IMG/VR virus record: IMGVR_UViG_3300026333_000001
Span: 1-58,298 of that record
DNA from: a virus
Lineage: Duplodnaviria; Caudoviricetes
Direction: 5' to 3' (one strand)
Length of the DNA: 58,298 nucleotides
The translations under genes were made by a program, and so were the position numbers. The notes under the pieces were generated by a model that saw only the letters and a program-made list of their open reading frames with translations, did not search any database and was not told the DNA's origin. Positions 26,091-51,886 of the stretch are shown here, in pieces. Every line of letters begins with the position of its first letter. The first letter of the stretch is position 1.

Positions 26091-26723
26091 TCATGCGGCT
26101 TTTCCTTTCAACGGCGGATCGTGATCTCTGGGTTTGTCCACAATCGGCGAGGCACGTGATCGGCATTCCAGCTCAGCTAGTCGACTACGGAAACGATCAT
26201 GCTTGTTGGTAGGTGTCTTGTGGTTAGGTGCTTGGTTAGGTGGGCGGTAACCATTACCGGTGTTCTCGGCCTCAGTTACCGGTGTTCTGGCCTCAGTTAC
26301 CGGTGTTCTTGAACCGGTCGCCACCGAACACCGGTTATCGCTACCGGTGTTCGGTGGGTTATCCACAGACTTCTCGTCCCGGTTATCCACAGGCTTCTCG
26401 TCCGGGTCGAGCATCTCCACACGGTCCAAGAGGTCATCGGGAACCGTCAGCCGGTACTCATCCGCCAACCCGCGGCGGCCCATCTTCGACCCCTCGAAGA
26501 CCCGCTCGACCAGACCGAGGTCCCGGAGCCGGTCCAGAGCTTTCCGGACCGTCTTGTCGGACAGTTCGGTGACGGCCACGAGACGCTCGTTTCCCGGCCT
26601 GATCCGCGTGCCGTCGCGGTTGGCGTAGTCGGCCAGCACCGCGGCGACTAGCTTCACCGAGGCGCCGAGTCGGCACCGGCGGATGACCCTGCGCCAACTG
26701 AACGGGTCGATGCCATCCCCCAT
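26091..26723 (-). CDS. Replication initiator (N-terminal winged HTH)
   Basis: ADYAN.DGT.IRPG..RL...TELSDKTVRKAL..LRDLGLVE wHTH; low-complexity C-terminal half encoded by iterons. Confidence 0.8.
   Translation of the reverse strand: MGDGIDPFSWRRVIRRCRLGASVKLVAAVLADYANRDGTRIRPGNERLVAVTELSDKTVRKALDRLRDLGLVERVFEGSKMGRRGLADEYRLTVPDDLLDRVEMLDPDEKPVDNRDEKSVDNPPNTGSDNRCSVATGSRTPVTEARTPVTEAENTGNGYRPPNQAPNHKTPTNKHDRFRSRLAELECRSRASPIVDKPRDHDPPLKGKAA
26134..26404. promoter_or_regulatory. Putative replication origin: iterons, inverted repeat and DnaA boxes
   Basis: TTACCGGTGTTCT at 26254, 26276 and 26297; 15-bp perfect inverted repeat 26321-26335/26343-26357; TTATCCACA at 26359 and 26383; TTGTCCACA at 26134. 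Confidence 0.85.
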
Positions 26724-27241
26724 CAGGCGACTCCCTGCTCAATCTGTGGACGCATGCGAGCGACAGCGAACTCCGGCGGTAGGTCACTGATCCTGTAGGC
26801 GCGGAAGGTCGACGAGCCGTCGCCGTTCTTCTGCTCGACACCGGGGGCCTTGCCGACAGGCAGCTGAGCAAGGGTCCGGCTGTGCCATAGCCGGAACACC
26901 TTCAGGTCGCCGAGCAGCCAGCCGTTGAGGTCGGTGCCGGAGCTGCTCGCGAAGCCGTAGAAGACGTAGTCGCCCCAGCCGGACAGCATCTTGGCCAGCT
27001 CGGTTTCGGTCCCCTTCGGGCGACGGGAACGGATGGTGAACTCGTCGGGGTAGCGGGTCGCGTAGTCGGCCCGACGCAGTCGACATGCGACTCGCACCGC
27101 GTCGAGCTTGAGCACGATGAGATCGGTGTTGTGCCGGGCGTCCTCCTCGAAGGGGGCTTCGGCGATCAGGTAGTTCGCCAGCACTTGCTTGACGCGCGGG
27201 ATGAGAGCCCGCTGCCAGTCGAAGTCACGCTCAAACGACAT
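26723..27241 (-). CDS. Conserved hypothetical protein, possible PD-(D/E)XK-like fold
   Basis: MSFERDFDWQ...EEDARHNTDL...RVACRLR...EFTIRS...GWGDYVFYGF; overlaps the end of the MT-A70 gene. The fold call is tentative. Confidence 0.6.
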   Translation of the reverse strand: MSFERDFDWQRALIPRVKQVLANYLIAEAPFEEDARHNTDLIVLKLDAVRVACRLRRADYATRYPDEFTIRSRRPKGTETELAKMLSGWGDYVFYGFASSSGTDLNGWLLGDLKVFRLWHSRTLAQLPVGKAPGVEQKNGDGSSTFRAYRISDLPPEFAVARMRPQIEQGVA

Positions 27242-28436
27242 CAGCGACCTCGTTCCCCCATGCGATGAATCCTTCGCGATCACGTCGAGCGAACATTTCG
27301 ACACGTGGGCCGGGGCTGGCCGCGGTGACGCGTTCATAGAACACATCCGGCTTGACGCTGTGCCCCTGCACGGGCGCCTCGAACGACAAGCGCAGGCCGA
27401 GACGTTGCAACGGCAGGTTCCCCCGCCGGCCGAACAGGACATGCTCGGTGTCATACATCCATGAGAACGGGGTGATGCCGACGTTCTTGCGCCACGTCAT
27501 CACGCACTGGTAGTTGAATCCCCACGCCTCAAGCAGGTCCATACCGGCGGGCAGGAACTTGTGGGTGACCCACAAATAGATGTGGCAATCGTCGGCGGCG
27601 AGGGTGCGCACCGGCACCAGGGCCTCCTCGGCGATGTCCTCGAGGCTCATCACCGGGTAGTCGAGCGTCCGGCCCTGGTCGGGACGCTCGACGCGTTCGA
27701 TCTTCTGCATCGGCCAAGGCGGGTCGATCACGACGCATGAGAACTTGCCCTCTGGCGGCCGTACCGGATCGGCGACCGCATCGGGAATGTGCAGACGCGC
27801 CACCGCCTGCCGAGCTTCGGCCTCGTCGCGCCGCATTTGCTTCGCCAGCCGCGCGGTACGTTCACTCTCGGCCTGAGCAAGAAACTGTTGTCGCTGCTCT
27901 TCGGCCAGCCCTGCCGCCGCAGCTGCCGCCGAGATGCTGATACCGCCATCCTTGCGACCCTTCTCGGCCTCAGCAATCAGCCTCTCGTCGCCACTATCCA
28001 GCACCTTGCGGGCGGCAATAACACTTTCACGACTGACTTTGAGCAACTTCGCGGCCGAGTCCTGAGGCAAAGTGGAAGTTTCCACTTTGCCTCCGGTGTG
28101 CTGGTTACCTCTATCGCCACCACGAGAAATGGTGGCGATCCGCGCGGCGACCATTGAGCGCTGGTCGCTGTCCAAATGCCGCCGATGCAAATTTAGCGAC
28201 ACCACGAATGCGACGAGTTCCGCATCCGGCCCCCCGTAGGTGCGGTAGTCCGGTTCCCGGGCGAGACTCCGGCACGCCCGGTACCGGTTCCGACCGTCGA
28301 TGATCCGGCCGTCGCTGTGCAACCACACCGGCTCGCGCAGCCCATGCTCTCTGATGTCATCAACGAGCCCGGCGAATTCAAGCTCGGACATCATCGGGAA
28401 GATGTCCGCGACAGGATGAAAATGCAGTTCGGTCAC
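27231..28436 (-). CDS. ParB-N/HTH/MT-A70 fusion adenine methyltransferase
   Basis: DIREHGLREPV...IIDGRNRYRAC (ParB-N); SLNLHRRHL; IDPPW, YLWVT, TEHVLFG, HSVKP, EMFAR...WGNE (MT-A70). Confidence 0.92.
   Translation of the reverse strand: MTELHFHPVADIFPMMSELEFAGLVDDIREHGLREPVWLHSDGRIIDGRNRYRACRSLAREPDYRTYGGPDAELVAFVVSLNLHRRHLDSDQRSMVAARIATISRGGDRGNQHTGGKVETSTLPQDSAAKLLKVSRESVIAARKVLDSGDERLIAEAEKGRKDGGISISAAAAAAGLAEEQRQQFLAQAESERTARLAKQMRRDEAEARQAVARLHIPDAVADPVRPPEGKFSCVVIDPPWPMQKIERVERPDQGRTLDYPVMSLEDIAEEALVPVRTLAADDCHIYLWVTHKFLPAGMDLLEAWGFNYQCVMTWRKNVGITPFSWMYDTEHVLFGRRGNLPLQRLGLRLSFEAPVQGHSVKPDVFYERVTAASPGPRVEMFARRDREGFIAWGNEVADVV
28064..28139. repeat. Two adjacent inverted repeats inside the ParB-MT-A70 gene
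   Basis: GAGGCAAAGTGGAA-GT-TTCCACTTTGCCTC (28064-28093) and ATCGCCACCA-N7-TGGTGGCGAT (28113-28139). Confidence 0.95.
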
Positions 28437-28645: not shown

Positions 28646-29046
28646 GCCGCCCCCTGTTCCGCATCCACCCGGGCGATGAGCCGTTGCGTGGTGGACCCGT
28701 TGATGTTCAGCAGCCGCGCGGTCTCACGCGGCCCGCACCCGCGACCGCGCAGGATGCGCACCGCCTCGACCCGCTCGGCCCTGCTGAGCGGCACCAGCCC
28801 ACCCGCGCAGGCCCGCTCCACGGCGACCTCGTCGATGACGCCGTCGTCGGGGCGCACCAGCGGATGCGGGCACCGGGCGGCCAGCACCACGGCGAGGGCG
28901 AGCAGTTCCTGCCGGTCAAGGCTGAGCAGCATGTCGGCGACCATCCGCGGGTTCCGCATGTGCACGGCGTAGGTCAGCCACGGCACGGTTGAGGAGGCCA
29001 GCAGTTCGGCCAGCTCGTCCCGCTGCTCGACGGTCAGGCCGGTCAT
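28642..29046 (-). CDS. HTH-domain protein
   Basis: IDEVAVERAC.G..V.LSRAER.EAV..L...RETARLL.INGSTTQR. Confidence 0.7.
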   Translation of the reverse strand: MTGLTVEQRDELAELLASSTVPWLTYAVHMRNPRMVADMLLSLDRQELLALAVVLAARCPHPLVRPDDGVIDEVAVERACAGGLVPLSRAERVEAVRILRGRGCGPRETARLLNINGSTTQRLIARVDAEQGAA

Positions 29047-29297
29047 GAGGCCGGCCTCATCCGCCGCTGGCCTCGGCGGCGCATGCGAACACGCTCATCC
29101 TCGGTGAGGCCACCCCAGATCCCGTACCTCTCCGGTGCGTCGAACGCCTGGTTCAGGCACTTGGCGCGGACTGGGCAGTGGCCACAGATCTTTTGAGCCG
29201 TCTCGATCTGCCGGGTGAACTCGGCGCCGTGGCCGGCCGGGAAGAACAGTTCGGTGTCTTCGTCGCGGCACGCGGCGGCGTCCTTCCAGGTGGTCAT
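29043..29297 (-). CDS. whiB: WhiB-family transcriptional regulator
   Basis: W...AAC...TELFFP...AQKICGHCPVRAKCL..A.....YGIWGGLTEDER; four Cys. Confidence 0.93.
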   Translation of the reverse strand: MTTWKDAAACRDEDTELFFPAGHGAEFTRQIETAQKICGHCPVRAKCLNQAFDAPERYGIWGGLTEDERVRMRRRGQRRMRPAS

Positions 29298-29611
29298 CAG
29301 CTCACCTCCGCTGTTTTGCGGGCCTGGATGGTGGCCTGCGCCCGGAGACCGCCGCGGCGTCTGCGTGCACGCCTGCGGTCGCGGCGGTTCATCCCGGCGA
29401 CCACGCCGTCGGGTTCCTCGCGCGGGCTCAGGGACATCACCCACCTGGTGCACTCGCGGATGACGGGGCACACCCCGCATACGGCCTTGGCCGGGGTGTC
29501 GTCGGGGCTTTCCATGACGACCGACTTGCCGCCGCAGGCCGCCCTCTTGGTCCAGGCGCCGCCGAGAAGTTCTGTCATTGCCTTGTGGTAGGCGCCGCGC
29601 ATGTTGGTCAT
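29297..29611 (-). CDS. Second, divergent WhiB-like protein
   Basis: WTKRAAC...AKAVCGVCPVIREC...GVVAGMNRRDR; four Cys retained, GVWGG altered. Confidence 0.8.
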   Translation of the reverse strand: MTNMRGAYHKAMTELLGGAWTKRAACGGKSVVMESPDDTPAKAVCGVCPVIRECTRWVMSLSPREEPDGVVAGMNRRDRRRARRRRGGLRAQATIQARKTAEVS

Positions 29612-30537
29612 CAGCCGGTCACCTCCTCGAACAGGTCGCCCTGCCCGTTCATCACAGGCGGGGGCTTCGGAACGCCGAGGGCACGGGCCCGCTCGCCGGG
29701 GTCGGTGGTGCGCCAGGCGGCGAGACGGCAGTAGTCGCCGGATCGGTCGATGCTGACGCCGCGGCGGCCGAGGACGTCGGCGACGAGAGCCGTGGTGCCC
29801 GTCCCTCCGAAGGGATCGGCGATCACGCCGCCAATCGGGGACCAGCCGAGGATGATGCGCCGCGGCCACTCCATCGGGAACGCGGCGTAGTGGTCAACTG
29901 CGAGGTGTGCGGGGACCTTGAGGGGCTGGGTGGCGATCTCCCAGACCGAGCCGGGCAGCGCCCCCCGCGCGTTCATTGAGGCGAACCTGCCGCCTCGCGG
30001 ACACGTCTGCGAGCCCTCCTCGCGGGCACGACGGGCCGCCGTCCAGGAGTCGTTGATCTCGCGGTTCCATTTGCGCGCCTCGCGGATCTCATCGACCGCG
30101 CTGAAGTAGCGCGGCTGCTTGGTCAGGTGCACCCAGTCTTCGTGCGAGCGCCGCACCCGGTCGGTCACGCTTTCGGGCAACCCATTGGGCTTGGACCAGA
30201 TCATGACGGCGCGGCCGATCAATCCCAGCTCGTCCCGGCACGCGATCCGGTACCGCTCCGGCAGGAACAGCAGGCTCTTGCCGTCGTACTTGTCGCCGAG
30301 GTCGACGAACATCGACCCCTCGGGCTTCAGCACACGCATCCACTCGCGGGTGCATTCCAGCAGCGCGGCCACGTACTCCTGCGGCGTGGCCTCGGAGCCG
30401 ATCTGCCCTGCGAGGCTGCTGTCTCCGTCGCGGTAATCCCTGAGGGCGTAGTACGGCGGCGAGGTGACGATCAGGTCCACGCTGGCGTCGTCGAGCGGGA
30501 GGTGACGGGCGTCTCCCCGTACGATGACGGCGGCCAT
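29611..30537 (-). CDS. DNA methyltransferase (N4-C/N6-A, beta class)
   Basis: VTSPPYY, RVLKPEGS, WSKPN, HYAAFP, DPFGGTGT. Confidence 0.93.
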   Translation of the reverse strand: MAAVIVRGDARHLPLDDASVDLIVTSPPYYALRDYRDGDSSLAGQIGSEATPQEYVAALLECTREWMRVLKPEGSMFVDLGDKYDGKSLLFLPERYRIACRDELGLIGRAVMIWSKPNGLPESVTDRVRRSHEDWVHLTKQPRYFSAVDEIREARKWNREINDSWTAARRAREEGSQTCPRGGRFASMNARGALPGSVWEIATQPLKVPAHLAVDHYAAFPMEWPRRIILGWSPIGGVIADPFGGTGTTALVADVLGRRGVSIDRSGDYCRLAAWRTTDPGERARALGVPKPPPVMNGQGDLFEEVTG

Positions 30538-33433
30538 CAGTCGGTCACCTCCAGCTCGGTGAAGCGCGTGCACCCGCACGGCGTCGCCTTCGGCCCGCTG
30601 CTGTACGAGCAGACGGTGCGGGTCTTGTCGCGGTCGCGGATGTCATGCAGCTCCTCAGCATGGCCGCAGCCCTCGGTGCCGCAGTGCTTGCCGGCGGCGG
30701 CGACGTGAGCGCAGGGTGGGACCGGGGACTGGGGGGAGGTCACGAGTCCTCGCTCTCCACAGCGTCAGCAGCGGCCAGGAGCTGCGCCGCGTACTGCCGG
30801 GCGTGCCAGGGCTCGCTTTCGCCGGCCTCGCGGCGGATCCACCCGTTGGGCAGGACGCGAGGGCCGACCGCGACGGTCTCGTCGTGGGGGATCTTCGACA
30901 CGACCCAGTGCCCGTCCTCGATTAGCCGCAGCACGGCGTCAGCGGCGCCGGGCCAGCCCCAGTCGGGATCGCTGCCGTCGCAGAAATCGGCCAGGATCTT
31001 CGCGAGCTGTTCGCGGAGGGTGGCCCGACCCGCGAGCGGGGTGTCATCGGGTCGGGCCGGTCCCGGCGGGGTGAGGGCGTCCCCGGCGGGAGTCTGGGAT
31101 GAGGTCACGACGTCCTCCCCGCGTGCCGCTCGCGCCAGGCGAGCACCGCAACCCCGCAGATGGTCCGGTCGCTGTACATCGGCGGGACCACGGCGAGCAG
31201 GAGCGTCACGGCGACGCCGACCGTGAACGCGGCGGCCAGGGGGATGGAGTAGCGGAGCGTCATGACCGCCTCCACTTGATGACGAGCAGCGGCAGCGGGC
31301 ACACGTACACGGCGGCCGGTGCCACGTACACGCCCACCCACGCGTCACGGGGCTCGACGTAGACCGACACGCGGCCGAGCGTGAGGCGCCTCACGGCTGT
31401 TCGCCCCGGGCAATGCGGGCGTCGCGGTACATGATCGCCGCGATGCGGGTAAGCGCCCGGTCGGCCTCGTCGCTGGTGGCCACGTCGTTAATCCGGTCGC
31501 GGAAGTAGTCCTCGATGTCCTTGGCGACCTGCTCGCGGACCTGCCGCTCATGGTCGGCCAGCACTGCAGCGATGGCGGCCCGGTTTGGCGAGTTGTCGCC
31601 GCGTTCGCGGGCCTGTAGCCATGCCCTAAAAAAGACGTCCACCAGCTCGTCGGGTACCTGCTCGGGTTTCACAGCCCCTCCCGCTTGCGGTCGTTGAACT
31701 GAGCCCAGCCGTCGTCGATGGCGGCGTGGTAGCCGCTCTCGCGGCCCTGCCTGCGGCCTCGGTGCACGCCGTAGCGGTAGGCGACCCAGACGGGGAAGGC
31801 CAGGGCGACGGCGGTGATGATGACGGCGGTCACAGCCCCTCCGTCTCGTGGTCGTAGACCTCGGCGGGCTCGCCGTACGCCTCATCACGAGCAGCGCCCG
31901 CGTCGTAGCCGGTGACCTCGTCCATGCGGGTGTCGAACCTCGCCATGTCCCAGCCCTCGCGATAGCCCTCGTGGTAGCCGCGCTGGTAGAAGAAGTCACG
32001 CGTGAGCCAGATGCTCAGCCCGGCGGTGGCGCCCAGGACCATGAACAGGACGGCGGCGAAGATGAGGATCTGGTGCGGTGGGGGGATCACGCGTCCCCAC
32101 CCCGCTCGGCCTCTATCTCCTCACGGACGGACGCGAGGACATCGGCGGCGGGCAGCCCGTAGGCCGCAGCGGCGCCGGAGAGGAGGCGAGCGTTCTCCTC
32201 GGTGAGCCGCGCGACTTCCTGCTCCAGCGCTACCGCTGCGTCACGGGCCCGGTCACGGTCGCCGATGAGCCGGGTCACCTCAGCCCGGTACGCATCCAGC
32301 ACGGCGGTTTCTTCGGGGATCATTCGGTACCGCCTTCAAGGACGTCGGCGAGGGTTTGGAGGGCTAGGCACCGCTGGTCGTTGCGGAGCGCGTTCAGGGC
32401 GGTCGCGGCGGCGTCGGTCAAGCGCTTCACGTCGGCCTCGGCCGCTTCCTTCTCGGCGACCAGAGCGCTGATGTTGGCCTGCAGCACGTCCTCGCCCGCC
32501 TGGTGCGCCTTGGCCGCGCGACGGTTCTCCTCGCACTTCTCCCGGAGCCGCTTCACCTCGGCGAGCAGGCCGTCAGCGTGCGCGAGTGCGTCAGAGATGA
32601 TCAGGTCGCTGTCGCGGTCCGGTCGCGCGGGGATGCTCATCCGCCAGCGACCGGGACCGGTGCGTCGGCAGATCTCACCGACCTCGGTGTGCGCCTTCTC
32701 CAGCGCGGCCTTGACGACGTCGAGGTCAGTCATGACCGGGCCCCCACGTAATTGCAGTCGTATCCGGGGGTCGCACCCCACTGGTAGGCGCGCTTGCAGC
32801 GCAGCGTGAGCGTCATCCCCGGATGCAGCAGTGAGCAGCGGGAGTCGTCGCAGGCGCGCTGTCGGCCGTCGGTGAAGGCGACGACGAACCGCTCCTCCAT
32901 CGTCTTGTCGCCGGTGGAGACGAGCCGCTTGGAGACCGTCTGGATGGTGCCCGTGGTCGTCTGCCACGAGTGGTACTCCCACCGGTACGGCCAGAACGCG
33001 ATCGCGGCGATACCGACGATGACGAGAGCAACGCCGACGGCGCCCCACTTGGGCAGGGTGAAGTCGTCGTCTTCCTTGGCCCAGTACCGGAGGACGAAGA
33101 ACGCGATCGCCGTGGCGATGAACAGGACGCCCGCGATGGGCAGTCCGATGATGATTCCGAGCGATGGCATTACGCGGTCCTCGCAGCGGTCAGGGCGGGC
33201 AGGGTGGTGGTGCGGCGCGGCCGGGCGTGGCAGTTCTCGTGCTCGAACCGGCGCCGGCGGTAGGTGAGTCCCCGGCGGAACCTCCCGGGCCAAGCCGCGA
33301 GAGCGGCGGCGAGGTCCCGGGCGTCGCGGGCGGTGGCGGTGAAGACCTGCGGGTGGCGGGCGATCCAGGCGAGCAGCACGTAGGAGGCGACGAGGAGGGT
33401 GAGCATCGCGGCCACGGTGAGGGTGTGGGTCAC
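30537..33433 (-). other. Cluster of about 11 small hypothetical early genes, several with single TM segments (e.g. 31105-31263, 31260-31394, 31669-31833, 31830-32090, 32730-33170, 33170-33433)
   Basis: Coupled GTGA/ATGA overlaps; hydrophobic N-termini. Confidence 0.6.
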
Positions 33434-33783: not shown

Positions 33784-34553
33784 GAAGGCACCTCCGTCAT
33801 GACGTGCCGCTCCCACTTCTGGACGAACGCGGTGTCGATGGACTGGTTCGGGCGGATCGAGCCGAACGGCGTGCCGCACTGGCAGCGGCCGTACAGCTCG
33901 CAGTCGCCGTACTCGACGACCAGGGCATGCCCGCCCTCCCAGGTGGCCGGGAAGGTCTCCTCGGTCACGACCCCTCGCCTTCCGGGACCTGCGCCGCCTC
34001 GGGCTGCGGGTCCACGACCGTGGCATCCATCGGTTCGGGGGCAAGGCACGACGTGTCCACGTCTGCGGCGTGCGACCAGCCGAGCGCGTCGCGGACGATC
34101 GGCTGCTGGCAGTTCCGGCACGCGACCGGGTTCCGCTGCGCGTCCTGCTCATCGGCGATCCGCCGATAGTCCGCAGCGCGGCGGCGCAGATCGTCGGCCT
34201 CCCCGGCAGCACGGCGCATCACCTCGTCGGCGAGCCCGTCAAGGCTGTCGGCGTGGCCGCGTAGGCTGTCCGGGGTCTTGTCGCTGTACAGCTCGATACG
34301 ATTACTCATGACGCGGTCCCTTCATGTCGGCGTCATCGGCGGCCCTCGGTAGCTCGGGGGCCGTCTCGCTTGTGGGGTGAATCTGGTCGGTAACGGCGCG
34401 CAGGTGGCGGCGCAGCGTCTCCTCCAGCGGCACGCAGGCACGGCAGTCGTGGTCGGCGGGCCGGTCCTCACCGCACGGCCCGCACCAGGTGAGCGGCACC
34501 AGCACGGCGCGTACGCCCTTCAGTGAGGACACGAGCCACATGGGGGCGATCAC
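33780..34553 (-). other. Three small hypothetical genes (33780-33968, 33965-34309, 34302-34553)
   Basis: Coupled ORFs with CxxC pairs. Confidence 0.55.
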
Positions 34554-35257
34554 GATGCGGCTCCGATCGTGAGCTGTTCATCGGGATCTTCGTCGCTCCC
34601 AGACACGACCCCGGTCAGGCGTTGGGCAATCCGCTCGCAGTACCGCTCATCGATCTCCACACCGATGGCCTTACGGCCGATCGCCTTCGCGGCCAGCAAC
34701 GCAGAACCCCCACCGGCGAAGGGGTCAAGAACCGTGGCCGGGGCGAGCTTGCTGATCAGGTACCGCAGAAGCGCCTGCGGCTTCTCGGTCGGGTGCACGC
34801 GGGTCGCTGCCGGTGACTTCGGGTAGCGCAGAACGCTTTGGTCTCGGCTACCGACCGTCTTGCCGTATCCGGCCGAGGCGATCAGCTCGTACGACGGCCC
34901 CCAGTGCTTGAGGTCGCCCATGCCGGGGTCGCCCTTGTCCCAGACGAGCATGCCGCGCAGCGGGAACCATGGCCCGAGTTCGGCCCACACGTCAGGCCAG
35001 ACGTCCCAGCGGGTGAACCACAGCACATGGTTTGAGCGCAGCAGCGGGATCACTGAACGCTGGAGAGCGATGGACAGCCGCACGCCGTCGTTCGTGATCG
35101 GTCGGGCACCACGGCCGACGGTGCGGTTCGAGACGTAGTTGATGCCGTACGGCGGGTCGGTGACGACGAGGTCAACTGGGTCGAGGGTTGGCAGGACATC
35201 GCGGCAGTCCGAGTGATACAGCGTCACCGTGTCGTCGGCGTAGTAGGGGGCCATCAC
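34550..35257 (-). CDS. DNA methyltransferase (N6-A/N4-C, beta class)
   Basis: VTDPPYG, HPTEKP, LDPFAGGGS, GVEIDERYCE. Confidence 0.93.
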   Translation of the reverse strand: MMAPYYADDTVTLYHSDCRDVLPTLDPVDLVVTDPPYGINYVSNRTVGRGARPITNDGVRLSIALQRSVIPLLRSNHVLWFTRWDVWPDVWAELGPWFPLRGMLVWDKGDPGMGDLKHWGPSYELIASAGYGKTVGSRDQSVLRYPKSPAATRVHPTEKPQALLRYLISKLAPATVLDPFAGGGSALLAAKAIGRKAIGVEIDERYCERIAQRLTGVVSGSDEDPDEQLTIGAAS

Positions 35258-35796
35258 GACGCCTCCCCGCTCGGCACCGGCCGTACGGTCCCGTCGTCAT
35301 CGAGCAGGCACCAGCCGTAGACTGCGTGATCGACTCGCTCGAGCCGGGGATGTTGTGACTGCTTCAGCCAGAAGCCCCTACGGTGCATCTCGGCGTCGCG
35401 GGACTCCGCCTTGCGGTGGCAGCCCGTGGTGGCGCTTCCGCACAGCAAGATCAAGTTGGCCGGAGAATTTGTTCTCGGGTCCGAGGACCCCCCGTCACCA
35501 CGGGCCACCCTGTGCTGAATGCTGTAGTCGACTCCCGCGACACCCTTGACAGGGTCGCCGCAGTCGGCGCACCGCCAGTCGTCGCGCTGCATGACCAGAG
35601 CCCGGGTGTTGCGGTCCGGGCCGGTGTCGACGTGCTTGACGCCTTCGAGGTGCCACTGCCCGTACCAGCACTGCGCGACCCGCTTGGGCGTCTCCTTCCG
35701 AAGCCCGAGGTCCGTCACCTTGACCAGGGCGCGTTCGGCGGCGGCCTGATCGCGGTACGTCTTGGTGCCGCAGGCGCACTTCGACTTGAGGGTCAC
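35254..35796 (-). CDS. HNH endonuclease
   Basis: RD.WRCADCG...IQHRVARG.GG....N.PANL.LLCG....GCH. Confidence 0.85.
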   Translation of the reverse strand: MTLKSKCACGTKTYRDQAAAERALVKVTDLGLRKETPKRVAQCWYGQWHLEGVKHVDTGPDRNTRALVMQRDDWRCADCGDPVKGVAGVDYSIQHRVARGDGGSSDPRTNSPANLILLCGSATTGCHRKAESRDAEMHRRGFWLKQSQHPRLERVDHAVYGWCLLDDDGTVRPVPSGEAS

Positions 35797-43069: not shown

Positions 43070-44278
43070 GTGCCCGTGGCCTACATCCGCAAACTGCCGT
43101 CCGGGAAGTACCAGGCCACCGTCCGCATGCCGAACGGCCAGCGCATCACCGAGACCGACCCGCTGAAGAAGGTCGTCAAGAAATGGGCGACCGAGCAGGA
43201 GGCGCGGTTCAACCGCGGCGATCACCGCGACCCGCGCGCCGGCCTGATCAAGTTGGGGGAGTGGCGCCGCCGCGTCTCGGAGAACCGCAGCCTTGAGCTG
43301 ACCACGGTGGCGAAACTCGACACCCTGTGGCGCACCCACTGCGAGGCCCAGTGGGGGCAGTGGCCGATGGCCGCGGTCACGCGCATGGAGGCGCAGGAGT
43401 GGGCGAACCGGCTGCGTACCACACGGCGTGCCCGGCACAAGGGCCGGACCGTGCGCGACCAGGACGAGGACGTGCCGCTACTGAGCGCCGAGACGATTCA
43501 CGCGGCCGTCAACACCATGAGCAAGCTGTACGCCCTCGCGATGCGAGAGAGCCCGCCGCTGGTGGCCGCTAACCCGTTCACAGACCTGGACCTGCCGCCA
43601 ATCGAGCTGCAGCCGATCGAGTTCTATGAGCATGGGGAGGCGGAGCTGCTGTACGCCGCGGTCGAGCAGCGATCCGGCATCGAATGGCGGGCCGCGGTCG
43701 AGCTCGGCATGGACGTCGGGCTGCGGCCAGGTGAGATCTTCGGTCTGCACGCTCCGCTGGTCGACTGGCGCCGCCGGCTGGCGGGGGTGCGGCAGGTGAT
43801 GACCCGCTACGGGCTGCGGGACTACCCCAAGTCCCGCAAGAGCAACCGCACCGTGCCGGTTCCCGAGGCGACGATGGAGCGGATGTCGGTGGCGATGCGG
43901 GGCCGGGACGCGTTCGGGGTGTGCACGTGCCCGAAGGTGCTCGCCGACGGCAGCCGCCTACCCGGCCGGGGCCCGTGCCCGGCGCTGGTCTTCAGGGCGC
44001 CGGAGGGTGGCCCGATCGACGACGGCAACTTCCGCGACCGGGTGTGGAACCCCGCCGTGGAGAAGGCGGGCATCCGCCGGTTCCCGCCGCGGATCATGCG
44101 TCACACTGCGGCGTCGTGGCTCGTGCAGGACGGGGTGCCGCTCTATGATGTGCAGGCGCTGCTCGGCCACGAGTCATATGCGACCACGCAGCGGTACGCG
44201 AGTCTCGCGCCGGACGCCCACGACAAGGTGATCGAGTCGTGGCAGCGACGCACCCGACAAGATCTCTCCGGTTCTTGA
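43070..44278 (+). CDS. int: Tyrosine integrase
   Basis: GLRPGE, PKS, RIMRHT, LLGH, TQRY; N-terminal arm-binding domain. Confidence 0.96.
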   Translation: MPVAYIRKLPSGKYQATVRMPNGQRITETDPLKKVVKKWATEQEARFNRGDHRDPRAGLIKLGEWRRRVSENRSLELTTVAKLDTLWRTHCEAQWGQWPMAAVTRMEAQEWANRLRTTRRARHKGRTVRDQDEDVPLLSAETIHAAVNTMSKLYALAMRESPPLVAANPFTDLDLPPIELQPIEFYEHGEAELLYAAVEQRSGIEWRAAVELGMDVGLRPGEIFGLHAPLVDWRRRLAGVRQVMTRYGLRDYPKSRKSNRTVPVPEATMERMSVAMRGRDAFGVCTCPKVLADGSRLPGRGPCPALVFRAPEGGPIDDGNFRDRVWNPAVEKAGIRRFPPRIMRHTAASWLVQDGVPLYDVQALLGHESYATTQRYASLAPDAHDKVIESWQRRTRQDLSGS

Positions 44279-51217: not shown

Positions 51218-51412
51218 GGCGTGCAGTGTCTCGCGTGCCGTTGCGTCTACGCAAAGGCATCTGACCCCCAGTCAGAAAATCATGAGAGTAAGGCTTGAGT
51301 TGATGATGACATCACGGCATCATGACGACCATCCAATCCCGGCCGGGACTCCCAACCCGGCACCCCTACAGGGGAGTGATCCCCCATGGAGCATCGCCCG
51401 CGAGCGGCCACC

Positions 51413-51886
51413 ATGACGCCGCCGAACGGCACACCCGTCGCCGCCGCGCCGTCGTGGCTCGCCCTCGAACCCGACCCGGTGTCGGCGAAGACCGCCCGCG
51501 TGTTCACGCGCACCCTGCTCGTGGAGGATCCGCGAGAGCTCGTCGACGACGTGGAGATGGTCGTCGACGAGCTCGTCACGAACGCGATCGTGCACGCCCC
51601 CGACGGCTACGTCGTCCCGCCGGGTATCTCGCCGTTAATTCACCTGGCGCTGCTGCCGATGCGCCGCTGGGTGGTCATCGAGGTGCGGGACCCGTGGCCG
51701 GACATCCCATGTAAACGAGAAACCGGCGACGCCGCCGAGGGTGGCCGCGGGCTGGAGATCGTGCACGCCCTGGCCGCCCGGTGCTGGACGAACCGGGGGG
51801 CAGCCGACAAAACAGTCCGTGCGATCGTGACCCGACCCGGCGCGAGGGTGACGGACGCGGAGCTGGACAGGCTGCGGCGCTCATGA
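51413..51886 (+). CDS. HATPase-like ATP-binding protein (AbaA-orfA / anti-sigma-like)
   Basis: VDELVTNAIVH, IEVRD, EGGRGLEIV.ALA..W...K.V.A; divergent from XRE; in-frame TTA at 51635. Confidence 0.9.
   Translation: MTPPNGTPVAAAPSWLALEPDPVSAKTARVFTRTLLVEDPRELVDDVEMVVDELVTNAIVHAPDGYVVPPGISPLIHLALLPMRRWVVIEVRDPWPDIPCKRETGDAAEGGRGLEIVHALAARCWTNRGAADKTVRAIVTRPGARVTDAELDRLRRS

Follow-up and report, generated by a model that had tools for sequence, protein, structure and literature searches.

A perfect 30-bp palindrome lies within the coding sequence of a phage gene for a ParB-like protein fused to an MT-A70 methyltransferase, immediately ahead of the codons for the helix-turn-helix (HTH) of the same protein. 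This in-gene dyad is a real feature and a variation on the ParB-parS theme. About half of the related genes carry different palindromes at the same position, and the element is therefore probably a private docking site of the protein encoded around it. From sequence comparisons, we place the probability that the palindrome is a cognate double-stranded DNA docking site for its own gene product at roughly 55%.

A palindrome within a ParB-like/MT-A70 fusion gene

The window, by which we mean the whole 58,298-bp stretch of DNA analysed, is the genome of a phage with actinobacterial-type genes that derives from soil metagenomes. Every relative in the phage collection falls below 60% identity, and a DNA-level search returned short methylase and WhiB matches only. 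The features relevant to the palindrome are as follows.

27231..28436, minus strand: fusion-protein gene, 401 amino acids (open reading frame), encoding a ParB-type N-domain, glycine-rich linker, HTH, long helix and MT-A70 adenine methyltransferase
28128..28436, minus strand: ParB/Srx-type N-terminal domain, residues 1-103 (homologue profile, Foldseek, AF2)
28284..28295, minus strand: GxxR motif, G48-R-N-R51 (codons GGT CGG AAC CGG), counterpart of ParB Box II (GERR)
28113-28139, no strand assigned: second inverted repeat, 10-7-10, over codons I-A-T-I-S-R-G-G-D, with perfect arms at 28113-28122 and 28130-28139
28065..28127, minus strand: linker, residues 104-124, consisting of the conserved GGDRGNQHTGGK and then the variable palindrome-encoded peptide (AF2, alignment A2)
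28064-28093, no strand assigned: perfect 14-2-14 palindrome, candidate cognate docking or loading site (read directly; single copy in the genome)
27993..28064, minus strand: HTH, residues 125-148 (AF2 helices 125-131 and 136-148, pLDDT about 89)
27792..27902, minus strand: long helix, residues 179-215, linking the DNA-binding module to the methylase (AF2 secondary structure)
27249..27743, minus strand: MT-A70 methyltransferase domain, residues 232-396 (Pfam PF05063, E 9.8e-16)
27714-27725, minus strand: DPPW catalytic motif, D238-P-P-W241 (codons read; invariant in alignment A3)

The first-pass annotation of this DNA, made from its letters alone, had described a 30-bp palindrome with perfect 14-bp arms and a 2-nt spacer. 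The element is present at 28064-28093, and it can be extended to 17-nt arms with 94% complementarity. Its reported position just ahead of the HTH is likewise correct, in that the repeats encode ...IATISRGGDRGNQHTGGKVETSTLPQ..., directly before the two predicted helices. The segment also has the low GC3 originally ascribed to it, with a value of 0.50 for codons 101-140 versus 0.825 in the MT-A70 part; the mean over 75 open reading frames, which had been pre-selected for GC3 above 0.78, is 0.864. Several codons within the palindrome are rare, with relative usages of 0.027 for ACT (which occurs twice), 0.062 for TTG, 0.072 for GGA, 0.076 for CCT and 0.084 for AAA.

In 30 Markov-1 simulations of the genome, perfect inverted repeats with arms of at least 14 nt and loops of at most 12 nt occurred 0.03 times on average. 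When the peptide was held fixed and synonymous codons were resampled according to genome usage, arms of at least 14 nt arose in 0.095% of 20,000 draws (P = 0.00095). A 12-nt arm of the palindrome has no other copy in the 58,298-bp genome, and allowing up to two mismatches adds a single match, no more than chance would provide. No promoter, terminator, T-run or terminator-like site was found at the dyad.

The encoded protein matches phrog_21315 over its full length (E 3e-60), and its AF2 model has a mean pLDDT of 74.7. By profile and predicted fold, its N-terminal domain belongs to the ParB/Srx superfamily (ParB-CTPase fold). A profile built from 20 homologues (A1) matches Noc, Spo0J and ParB chains in the PDB with E values of 4e-19 to 4.5e-14, and KorB with 3e-7. 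The same proteins, Noc, Spo0J, ParB and KorB, are the top Foldseek matches for the model of the N-terminal part, where the domain reaches a pLDDT of about 90, and the alignments to ParB, Noc and Spo0J run over 145-167 columns that span both the N-domain and the HTH. In a single-sequence search, the window's own protein does not match Pfam ParB_N at E<=0.01, and it reaches only E 0.036 against TIGR00180; nine of the 20 aligned homologues do match ParB_N. Residues G48 and R51 of the GxxR motif are invariant across alignment A3, which comprises 14-15 full-length homologues, and they align with GERRWRA of Noc.

The linker is of low confidence in both AF2 models, which portray it as disordered, and it accepts almost any peptide. 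Its GGDRGNQHTGGK peptide is invariant in alignment A2. We rejected DNA-level conservation of the corresponding codons because their synonymous sites vary freely (53 genes). More than 2,000 homologues were found; the closest protein, P0002, is 82% identical to that of the window and is without the GGDRGNQHTGGK motif. The linker peptide of P0002 is compatible with a palindromic coding sequence of window-like inner half-site geometry, although this is a back-translation and does not count as evidence.

Downstream of the HTH, Pfam identifies MT-A70 alone, and there is no canonical ParB C-terminal dimerisation domain; the predicted long helix (residues 179-215) is a possible dimerisation element. 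The PF05063 match scores 58.6 bits against a gathering cutoff of 23.9 and covers model positions 1-172 of 172, and the C-terminal half is predicted to fold like METTL3/MTA1 (Foldseek matches to METTL3 and MTA1, E about 1e-9). A ParA-like PHROG match is found for none of the 62 open reading frames of the genome at E<=1e-5. The fusion gene is adjoined by a replication-initiator gene that is full of repeats.

Recurrence and exchange of the palindrome among homologous genes

The initial proposal raised the question of whether a palindrome recurs at the equivalent codon position of ParB-N/GGDR/HTH homologues, and the answer is affirmative. In a non-redundant set of 75 homologous genes, 40 carry a strong linker dyad (a score of at least 8), whereas dyads of this strength occur in 0 of 67 equal-length control segments from the N-domain and in 1 of 55 from the MT domain. 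A motif-anchored set gave 28 of 53 genes with the dyad; the corresponding counts for eight control windows ranged from 0 to 2 of 53. Furthermore, when perfect inverted repeats (arms of at least 8, loops of at most 12) were mapped in 38 genes, 25 of the 29 fell at query residues 100-149.

The dyads comprise 39 distinct sequences that vary by lineage. In every genome checked the dyad is single-copy, namely in the window, a complete 188-kb phage (G003) and seven fragmentary contigs. Dyads at the same position are also present in ParB-N/HTH genes that match the N-terminal module only (L037/L092, L076, L124, L114), which have no methylase domain in the stretch examined. The other 35 of the 75 homologues are without a linker dyad scoring at least 8. 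Relocated palindromes were considered for these genes and rejected, since their flanks of 1.5-3 kb hold no excess (5 inverted repeats per group). Since these 35 genes have neither a strong linker dyad nor a compensating flank palindrome, the family does not strictly require the site.

The manner in which the dyads vary indicates that selection acts on the DNA and not on the peptide, as judged from the distinct dyads, the rare codons and resampling results, and compensatory changes between the arms. These last are seen on comparing L004/L142 with L042, in which both flanking domains are 99% identical and two compensatory changes affect both arms of the dyad, with the encoded amino acids altered too.

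The first-pass annotation also held that the HTH and its site are swapped together as one specificity cassette. Three pairs of near-identical genes, each differing only in a patch that takes in the dyad together with some or all of the HTH, support this idea at the sequence level. Between L180 and L192, DNA identity is 30-63% within a patch of approximately 200 nt that holds the dyad and HTH, compared with 93-100% elsewhere, and the two palindromes are unrelated. The replaced patch again consists of the dyad and HTH in L227/L146, and of the dyad, linker and first HTH helix in L209/L212. The dyad occupies linker codons immediately upstream of the HTH codons, and thus site and putative reader would be inherited or exchanged as a single hypervariable cassette. 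Covariation with the recognition helix, another part of the original proposal, appears only weakly outside these mosaic pairs: half-site similarity tracks HTH identity with a partial Spearman coefficient of 0.21 over 378 non-independent pairs, versus a partial rho of 0.02 for N-domain identity. Overall, the initial interpretation is supported in part, with regard to positional recurrence, cassette swapping and the ParB-N/HTH/MT-A70 family, but not for the second hairpin that it included, which is unconserved, nor for the 35 genes in which a strong dyad is missing.

A putative docking site and competing explanations

We propose that a dimer of the ParB-like module would dock on the dyad via its two HTH motifs. 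If the protein behaves like ParB, KorB and BisD, its N-domains probably close once nucleotide is bound at the GxxR pocket, after which the closed dimer would leave the dyad as a sliding clamp and could take its pair of MT-A70 domains along the encoding phage DNA. If the clamp moves the methylase along the encoding DNA in this way, adenine methylation would as a consequence be biased towards the phage's own DNA, presumably as an anti-restriction measure. That the gene product binds the dyad, dimerises, depends on nucleotide, slides and methylates preferentially in cis is our inference, and the clamp-loading and cis-methylation steps taken alone are possible at best. Equally tentative is a broader notion, in which the linker dyad and HTH would form a portable and hypervariable address label. 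Each lineage of phages or mobile elements would then possess a private site-reader pair inside a single gene, an NTP-gated clamp would deliver the effector, in this case an adenine methylase, only to the encoding DNA, and a swap of the cassette of about 200 nt would re-address the enzyme.

Several observations count against a docking site. First, a single site would need to suffice for a genome of 58 kb (188 kb in G003), which exceeds the sliding distance of about 50 kb described for BisD (PMC12409273). Second, arms of 14-17 bp are longer than the usual HTH half-site. Third, the protein is missing the canonical ParB C-terminal dimerisation domain, and Pfam ParB_N misses its N-domain. Fourth, 35 of 75 homologues have no strong linker dyad. 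Fifth, the 82%-identical P0002 is without the GGDRGNQHTGGK motif. With regard to the nucleotide, a survey of purified ParB-fold proteins describes NTP binding by only 11 of 28, finds that SAM-methyltransferase fusions bound ATP and not CTP, and states that NTP specificity is not predictable from sequence (PMC12704722).

The alternative that survives best, although we consider it unlikely, is that the dyad is solely an autoregulatory operator at which an HTH dimer would block or slow transcription of its own gene, thereby capping a potentially harmful methylase, with no clamp loading or spreading. A dyad that is single-copy and always intragenic is enough for self-regulation and is less than genome-wide spreading would need. 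Methyltransferases that control their own synthesis through a separate operator-binding domain are established, as for M.Ecl18kI (PMC2760811), and the covariation of site and HTH is explained equally well. However, the same-position dyad also occurs in the genes noted above that have the N-terminal module and no methylase domain, and a simple repressor needs no conserved GxxR N-domain. Moreover, no promoter-like site was found near the dyad, and repression would therefore need to operate in a roadblock mode. An operator and a docking site are compatible functions, and both could hold for the same dyad.

The geometry of the dyads bears on explanations that invoke nucleic acid structure. Their arms are 10-17 nt long, their spacers are mostly 0-3 nt, and the dyads as a whole measure 20-37 bp. 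A spacer of at most 2 nt is found in 24 of 39 dyads (binomial P 1.5e-6 against a 25% expectation that we assumed for elements acting only as hairpins). The central bases are therefore complementary, though they would be unable to pair in a hairpin. None of the eight arm mismatches is G·T, and dyad centres are A/T-rich (0.64 versus 0.46 in the outer arms). Together, the short spacers and the lack of G·T mismatches fit a double-stranded dimer site better than an RNA hairpin.

It is improbable, in our estimation, that the palindrome acts as a cruciform or single-strand hairpin read by the replication, recombination or packaging machinery, or as a joint for module exchange, with the protein's own HTH not being the reader. 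Retention of pairing while sequence varies is typical of structural elements, the A/T-rich centres would favour extrusion, in mosaic pairs the replaced patch has the dyad at its edge, and the repeat-filled replication-initiator gene is next door. Such an explanation nevertheless gives no account of why, across phyla, the element is confined to a single codon position in a single family of proteins, leaves unexplained the adjacent HTH that changes with the dyad, and has no need of central complementarity. In addition, a stable cruciform would usually call for arms longer than 10-17 bp.

Far less probable still is a role at the mRNA level, whereby a hairpin would pause or control translation after the N-domain and before the HTH, or would provide a processing site. 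Every such element is transcribed and keeps the reading frame, the palindrome is rich in rare codons, and a perfect palindrome would fold as RNA; however, conserved complementarity at the centre of the short-spacered dyads would be useless to a hairpin, G·T is absent from the arm mismatches, and no T-run or terminator-like site accompanies the dyad. Finally, the disordered, tolerant linker predicted by both AF2 models and the lack of a strong dyad in about half of the homologues would suit a functionless palindrome, arising by chance or as a by-product of template-switch mutation, but we give this the least credence of all in view of the excess of linker dyads over control segments, the simulated expectation of 0.03 such repeats per genome, and the compensatory changes on both arms between 99%-identical genes.

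Related systems and neighbouring repeats

The known case closest to the putative docking site is BisD-bisS of the Pseudomonas element ICEclc. BisD is a ParB-like CTP clamp whose bisS sites are 11-1-11 palindromes (23 bp) inside coding sequences; it loads at bisS and slides over tens of kb, and its binding and CTPase activity have been measured (PMC12409273). As described there, BisD shares with the window's protein the ParB-like character, the GxxR nucleotide pocket, an added effector domain and long, perfect, intragenic palindromes. In contrast, bisS occurs as two copies in other genes (inrR and ssb), whereas the candidate dyad is a single copy at a fixed codon position of its reader's own gene. 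The effectors differ as well, being a transcription-activating domain in BisD (PMC12409273) and an MT-A70 methylase in the window's protein.

The ParB-parS, Noc-NBS and KorB-OB systems resemble the window's gene in having a ParB N-domain and HTH fold, a GxxR motif and a palindrome, which in the known systems is a site read by a dimer. Unlike canonical ParABS systems, the window has no ParA-like match among its 62 open reading frames and no C-terminal dimerisation domain. Canonical ParB sites are conserved and 13-16 bp long, whereas the dyads of the window's family are 20-37 bp, lineage-specific, hypervariable and fixed before the HTH codons. Sites inside a protein's own coding sequence are also a feature of the phage lambda O protein, whose binding sites (the ori-lambda iterons) occupy a tolerant region of its own gene. 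The window's O-like gene has the same layout. Lambda O differs in belonging to another protein family, in its replication-origin function, and in having iterons rather than a single dyad. In ParB systems, too, the operon or gene of the reader can harbour its site. The B. subtilis spo0J gene reportedly contains a parS. Sites of this type near or inside partition genes are described for the repABC replicons of Rhizobiales, where repB can carry one at its 5' end (PMC9040568).

Two phage-associated groups couple ParB-like proteins to DNA modification or to methyltransferases. Phage-enriched fusions of a ParB-CTPase fold to methyltransferases, MT-A70 included, have the same class of architecture as the window's protein, and the text describing them mentions no palindromes and names no cognate DNA sites for methyltransferase fusions (PMC12704722). 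There, the MT-A70 fusion is enriched in archaea and MT-A70 is seen as RNA-related (PMC12704722), whereas the window is a phage with actinobacterial-type genes and a candidate site. The thymine dioxygenase system 5mYOX176/ParB176 likewise couples a phage ParB-like protein to a post-replicative modifier of bases in double-stranded DNA, but its components are described as separate proteins, with no site known for the ParB and no obvious DNA-binding domain in it (PMC13229309); the window's protein is fused and has both an HTH and a candidate site. In the main text of openly available papers, we found no account of a palindrome that occupies a fixed place within ParB-like or ParB-methylase genes.

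Orphan ParB-like proteins are described as widespread on phages and plasmids (PMC12704722). The DNA targets of these proteins are mostly unknown, and for HerB/YfjB of the F plasmid, ChIP-seq is reported to have given no parS-like repeat (PMC13370423). Provided that the dyad within the gene is the cognate site, the target could be read from the gene for about half of the family, and the role of the ParB module for the fused methylase could be tested with a 30-bp oligonucleotide; the mosaic pairs constitute natural specificity-swap experiments. If loading confines methylation to the encoding DNA, this would amount to a new form of phage self-protection that leaves competitors and host unmethylated. 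Should the dyad and HTH truly serve as an address label, they would represent a device for self/non-self marking in DNA modification, and a general rule might follow whereby the cognate sites of many orphan ParB-like proteins are readable from their genes.

The second hairpin of the first-pass annotation, placed 19 nt from the first, does exist as a perfect 10-7-10 repeat (28113-28139). We rejected it as a conserved element, given that among 37 other genes only L062 has an equivalent, and it is probably incidental. Genome-wide, eight inverted repeats with arms of at least 10 are observed against 2.8 expected, and the 10-7-10 repeat by itself is within chance. A third inverted repeat, at 27660-27692 in the MT domain, has a counterpart in no homologue. 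Three of the eight genome-wide repeats lie inside the fusion gene, which is a post hoc observation. We also considered extra half-sites around the dyad. In the window, four of the genome's 12 AAAGT/ACTTT pentamers fall within 28023-28088, and the half-sites were rejected when arm 6-mers proved not to be enriched within 150 nt (0.0040 versus 0.0034 per nt at 25 loci).

The palindrome and the fusion protein

Three features on the minus-strand gene for the ParB-methylase fusion frame the analysis.

27231-28436, minus strand: ORF of the fusion protein, 401 aa
28064-28093: perfect 14-2-14 palindrome, its arms stretching to 17 nt at 94% complementarity
28113-28139: perfect 10-7-10 inverted repeat, beginning 19 nt past the end of the 14-2-14 palindrome

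The first-pass annotation had described this 30-bp palindrome, the second hairpin 19 nt away and the low GC3 of the helix-turn-helix (HTH) segment that holds them, and all three are borne out. On the coding strand, the palindrome occupies codons 115-125 and the second repeat codons 100-108, within the peptide stretch IATISRGGDRGNQHTGGKVETSTLPQ, and the HTH is predicted directly after this stretch (helices 125-131 and 136-148 in the AF2 model). GC3 is 0.50 over codons 101-140, compared with 0.696 over codons 1-230 and 0.825 in the MT-A70 part. Averaged over 75 ORFs, which were pre-filtered for high GC3, it is 0.864. The palindrome's codons are rare by this genome's usage. Perfect repeats with arms of at least 14 nt occur at a mean of 0.03 per simulated genome, and just 0.095% of 20,000 synonymous resamplings, with the peptide kept fixed, produced arms of this length.

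The methylase assignment rests on an MT-A70 Pfam match of 58.6 bits (cutoff 23.9), a DPPW motif that is invariant across homologues, and an AF2 model whose C-terminal half is structurally similar to METTL3 and MTA1. For the N-terminal part, the window's single sequence gave no match to Pfam ParB_N; a profile built from 20 homologous N-terminal regions matched Noc, Spo0J and ParB chains of solved structure (E from 4e-19 to 4.5e-14) and KorB (3e-7). The AF2 model of residues 5-165 (pLDDT 85, pTM 0.73) has Noc, Spo0J, ParB and KorB as its best structural matches, with 145-167 aligned columns, and G48-R-N-R51, the counterpart of Box II, is conserved. The full-length architecture corresponds to phage family phrog_21315 (E 3e-60). 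Of 8,000 candidate proteins that were scored, 2,280 reached E<=1e-10.

In 53 motif-bearing loci from several phyla, whose proteins are otherwise ~30% identical, the 12-residue peptide GGDRGNQHTGGK hardly varies. It is kept at the protein level only, as synonymous sites vary freely in these 53 genes, and it is missing from P0002, the closest relative, which is 82% identical to the window's protein. Because the GGDRGNQHTGGK loop and the palindrome-encoded peptide are of low confidence in both AF2 models, the dyad is predicted to lie in the codons of a flexible linker.

Other repeats in the gene did not survive comparison with relatives. Of 37 other genes, one has a counterpart of the 10-7-10 repeat, which is ruled out as a conserved element. 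A perfect 11-11-11 inverted repeat at 27660-27692, where the MT-A70 domain has its conserved VERPDQGRTLDY peptide, recurs in no homologue. Four of the genome's 12 AAAGT/ACTTT pentamers fall within 66 nt (28023-28088), two within the arms of the palindrome and two within HTH codons; relatives have no such enrichment, and we rejected the pentamers as extra half-sites. It is odd, though spotted post hoc, that 3 of the 8 perfect repeats genome-wide (arms >=10, loop <=12) lie within this 1.2-kb gene.

Recurrence and geometry of linker dyads

Homologous loci were gathered from viral, genome and metagenome contigs, and each gene was placed on the query by tblastn. In a first set of 38 non-redundant genes, a perfect inverted repeat (arms >=9, loop <=4) is found in the linker of 17 (4,668 nt of linker in total). 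The remaining 33,945 nt hold 3 such repeats, one of which is a linker dyad just beyond the edge of the linker window used. When 53 genes were anchored on the peptide GNQHTGG, such repeats centred 0-50 nt past the motif start were present in 15, while the other thirteen 50-nt bins yielded 5 altogether; with mismatches permitted, 28/53 score at least 8, compared with 0-2/53 in each of eight control windows. The union set comprises 75 non-redundant genes including the window's, with N-domain (67) and MT-domain (55) stretches as controls.

Table. Genes with a dyad in the union set, by minimum score
Score at least 8: linker 40/75; N-domain control 0/67; MT-domain control 1/55
Score at least 10: linker 31/75; N-domain control 0/67; MT-domain control 1/55
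Score at least 12: linker 22/75; N-domain control 0/67; MT-domain control 0/55

The first-pass annotation had taken the palindrome for a loading site carried by the gene itself and had named its recurrence in homologues as a check. It does recur at this codon position, and the counts at the lowest threshold indicate that roughly half of the family has the dyad there and roughly half lacks it. Homologues without a linker dyad have no compensating palindrome in the flanking DNA examined, and two of three cultured-phage relatives are without any repeat of arms >=9. The ParB-methylase gene of Agrobacterium phage Rivra carries a perfect 10-1-10 palindrome (L080:4369-4389) just after the HTH codons, not before them. 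Separately, in one homologue that lacks a linker dyad, a perfect 20-1-20 palindrome (L001:5984-6024) occurs ~1.9 kb downstream of the gene.

There are 39 distinct dyad sequences, many of which have the conserved motif's Gly-Lys codons as their anchor and vary in their inner part. Spacers are 0 nt in 12, 1 in 6, 2 in 6, 3 in 8, 4 in 2 and 8-11 in 5. In 24/39, the spacer is too short for a hairpin loop, and the centre is thus complementary beyond any use by RNA or single-strand folding (binomial P 1.5e-6 for the short-spacer excess, against an assumed expectation of 25%). None of 8 arm mismatches is G·T, and the A/T fraction is 0.64 in dyad centres versus 0.46 in outer arms. Such features are consistent with a double-stranded site read by a symmetric dimer. 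Loci L004/L142 and L042, with both flanking domains 99% identical, differ by two changes that are mirrored on both arms and alter amino acids, which argues that symmetry is what is conserved. The arm sequence has no second occurrence in the window's genome, and the dyad is single-copy there, in a complete phage of 188 kb that has terminal repeats, in contigs of 39.6 kb and 44.9 kb and in five smaller fragments, although fragments cannot exclude further copies.

Exchange of the dyad with the HTH, and a candidate function

The proposal that dyad and HTH are swapped together as a cassette is supported by three mosaic pairs of loci. The L180 and L192 proteins are near-identical except for residues ~99-155; at the DNA level they share 93-100% identity within nt 1-210 and mostly 90-100% (full range 77-100%) from nt 511 on, but 30-63% within nt 300-480, where dyad and HTH lie. 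Their palindromes are unrelated (13-nt and 14-nt arms, both with spacer 0). L227 and L146 have N and methylase domains 86-88% identical, a diverged linker and HTH, and dyads with common outer and different inner arms. L209 and L212 are identical except for a ~35-residue patch covering the linker and the first HTH helix, and their dyads differ. The expected covariation of palindrome and recognition helix is weakly positive: given N-domain identity, inner half-site similarity follows HTH identity with a partial Spearman of 0.21 (378 non-independent pairs from 28 genes), and no such relation is seen with N-domain identity once HTH identity is controlled for (0.02).

The whole N-terminal module is likewise exchangeable. 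In five proteins (P0042, P0059, P0065, P0070 and P0087), a methylase domain with 74-87% identity to that of the window is joined to an unrelated N-terminal part (a different ParB-like module, HTH_23-type modules or PF11300), and the junction lies near the proline-rich stretch preceding the DPPW domain. These five are cases of module shuffling among close relatives.

Taken together, the best-supported reading, to which we give a little better than even odds (about 0.55), is that the gene's own product recognises the dyad as its cognate site. A dimer of this product would dock on the dyad through its HTH motifs, nucleotide binding in the GxxR pocket would convert it to a sliding clamp, by analogy with ParB, KorB and BisD, and the clamp would then transport two methylase domains along the phage DNA, giving methylation biased in cis. 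A simpler alternative, compatible with a cognate site, is that the dyad serves as an intragenic operator for self-regulation.

A parS site lies within spo0J, and the lambda origin lies within the O gene. Another parS is at the 5' end of repB, according to the available text of PMC9040568. Since sites in or beside partition genes are already known, we class the linker dyad within the ParB-parS theme rather than as a new kind. The published precedent nearest in geometry, in the portions available of PMC12409273, is BisD-bisS: the verified bisS sites, 11-1-11 palindromes, fall within coding sequences, and BisD slides ~50 kb. Phage ParB-like proteins that assist DNA-modifying enzymes (PMC13229309) and ParB-fold fusions to methyltransferases (PMC12704722) are also published; unlike the dyad here, an in-gene site is not described in the accessible text of either, and 'palindrom' occurs 0 times in that of PMC12704722. 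A full-text search of the main text of openly accessible articles found no description of a fixed-position dyad within ParB-like or ParB-methylase genes.

The phage genome and its other in-gene repeats

The window is an entire virus record of 58,298 bp, found in two soil-metagenome runs, with G+C of ~69%. PHROG matches on 62 ORFs identify a temperate tailed phage.

26091-26723, minus strand: O-like replication initiator (phrog_270/391)
29043-29480: WhiB-like regulator
29611-30579, minus strand: DNA methyltransferase (phrog_67)
34550-35257, minus strand: DNA methyltransferase (phrog_67)
35254-35796: HNH endonuclease, adjoining one of the two phrog_67 genes
43070-44278: integrase
Also matched: anti-repressor and Erf-like annealing protein; terminase large subunit, portal, major head protein and tape-measure protein; holin and endolysins

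Its actinobacterial-type genes (WhiB) suggest that the host is an actinobacterium. With the MT-A70 fusion and the two phrog_67 genes, the phage has three methylase genes in all. A perfect 15-9-15 inverted repeat (51536-51574) within a predicted transcriptional-regulator ORF (51386-51886), near the repressor/integrase region, could be an operator or a further in-gene site. The O-like initiator gene has repeats at 26200-26407, including a perfect 15-7-15 inverted repeat (26321-26357), and three short tandem arrays (15 nt x3.1; 21 nt x2.6, with 97% matches; 24 nt x2.1). The layout resembles an origin whose iterons lie within the initiator gene itself, and would make a second instance, in this genome, of a site within the gene of its reader.
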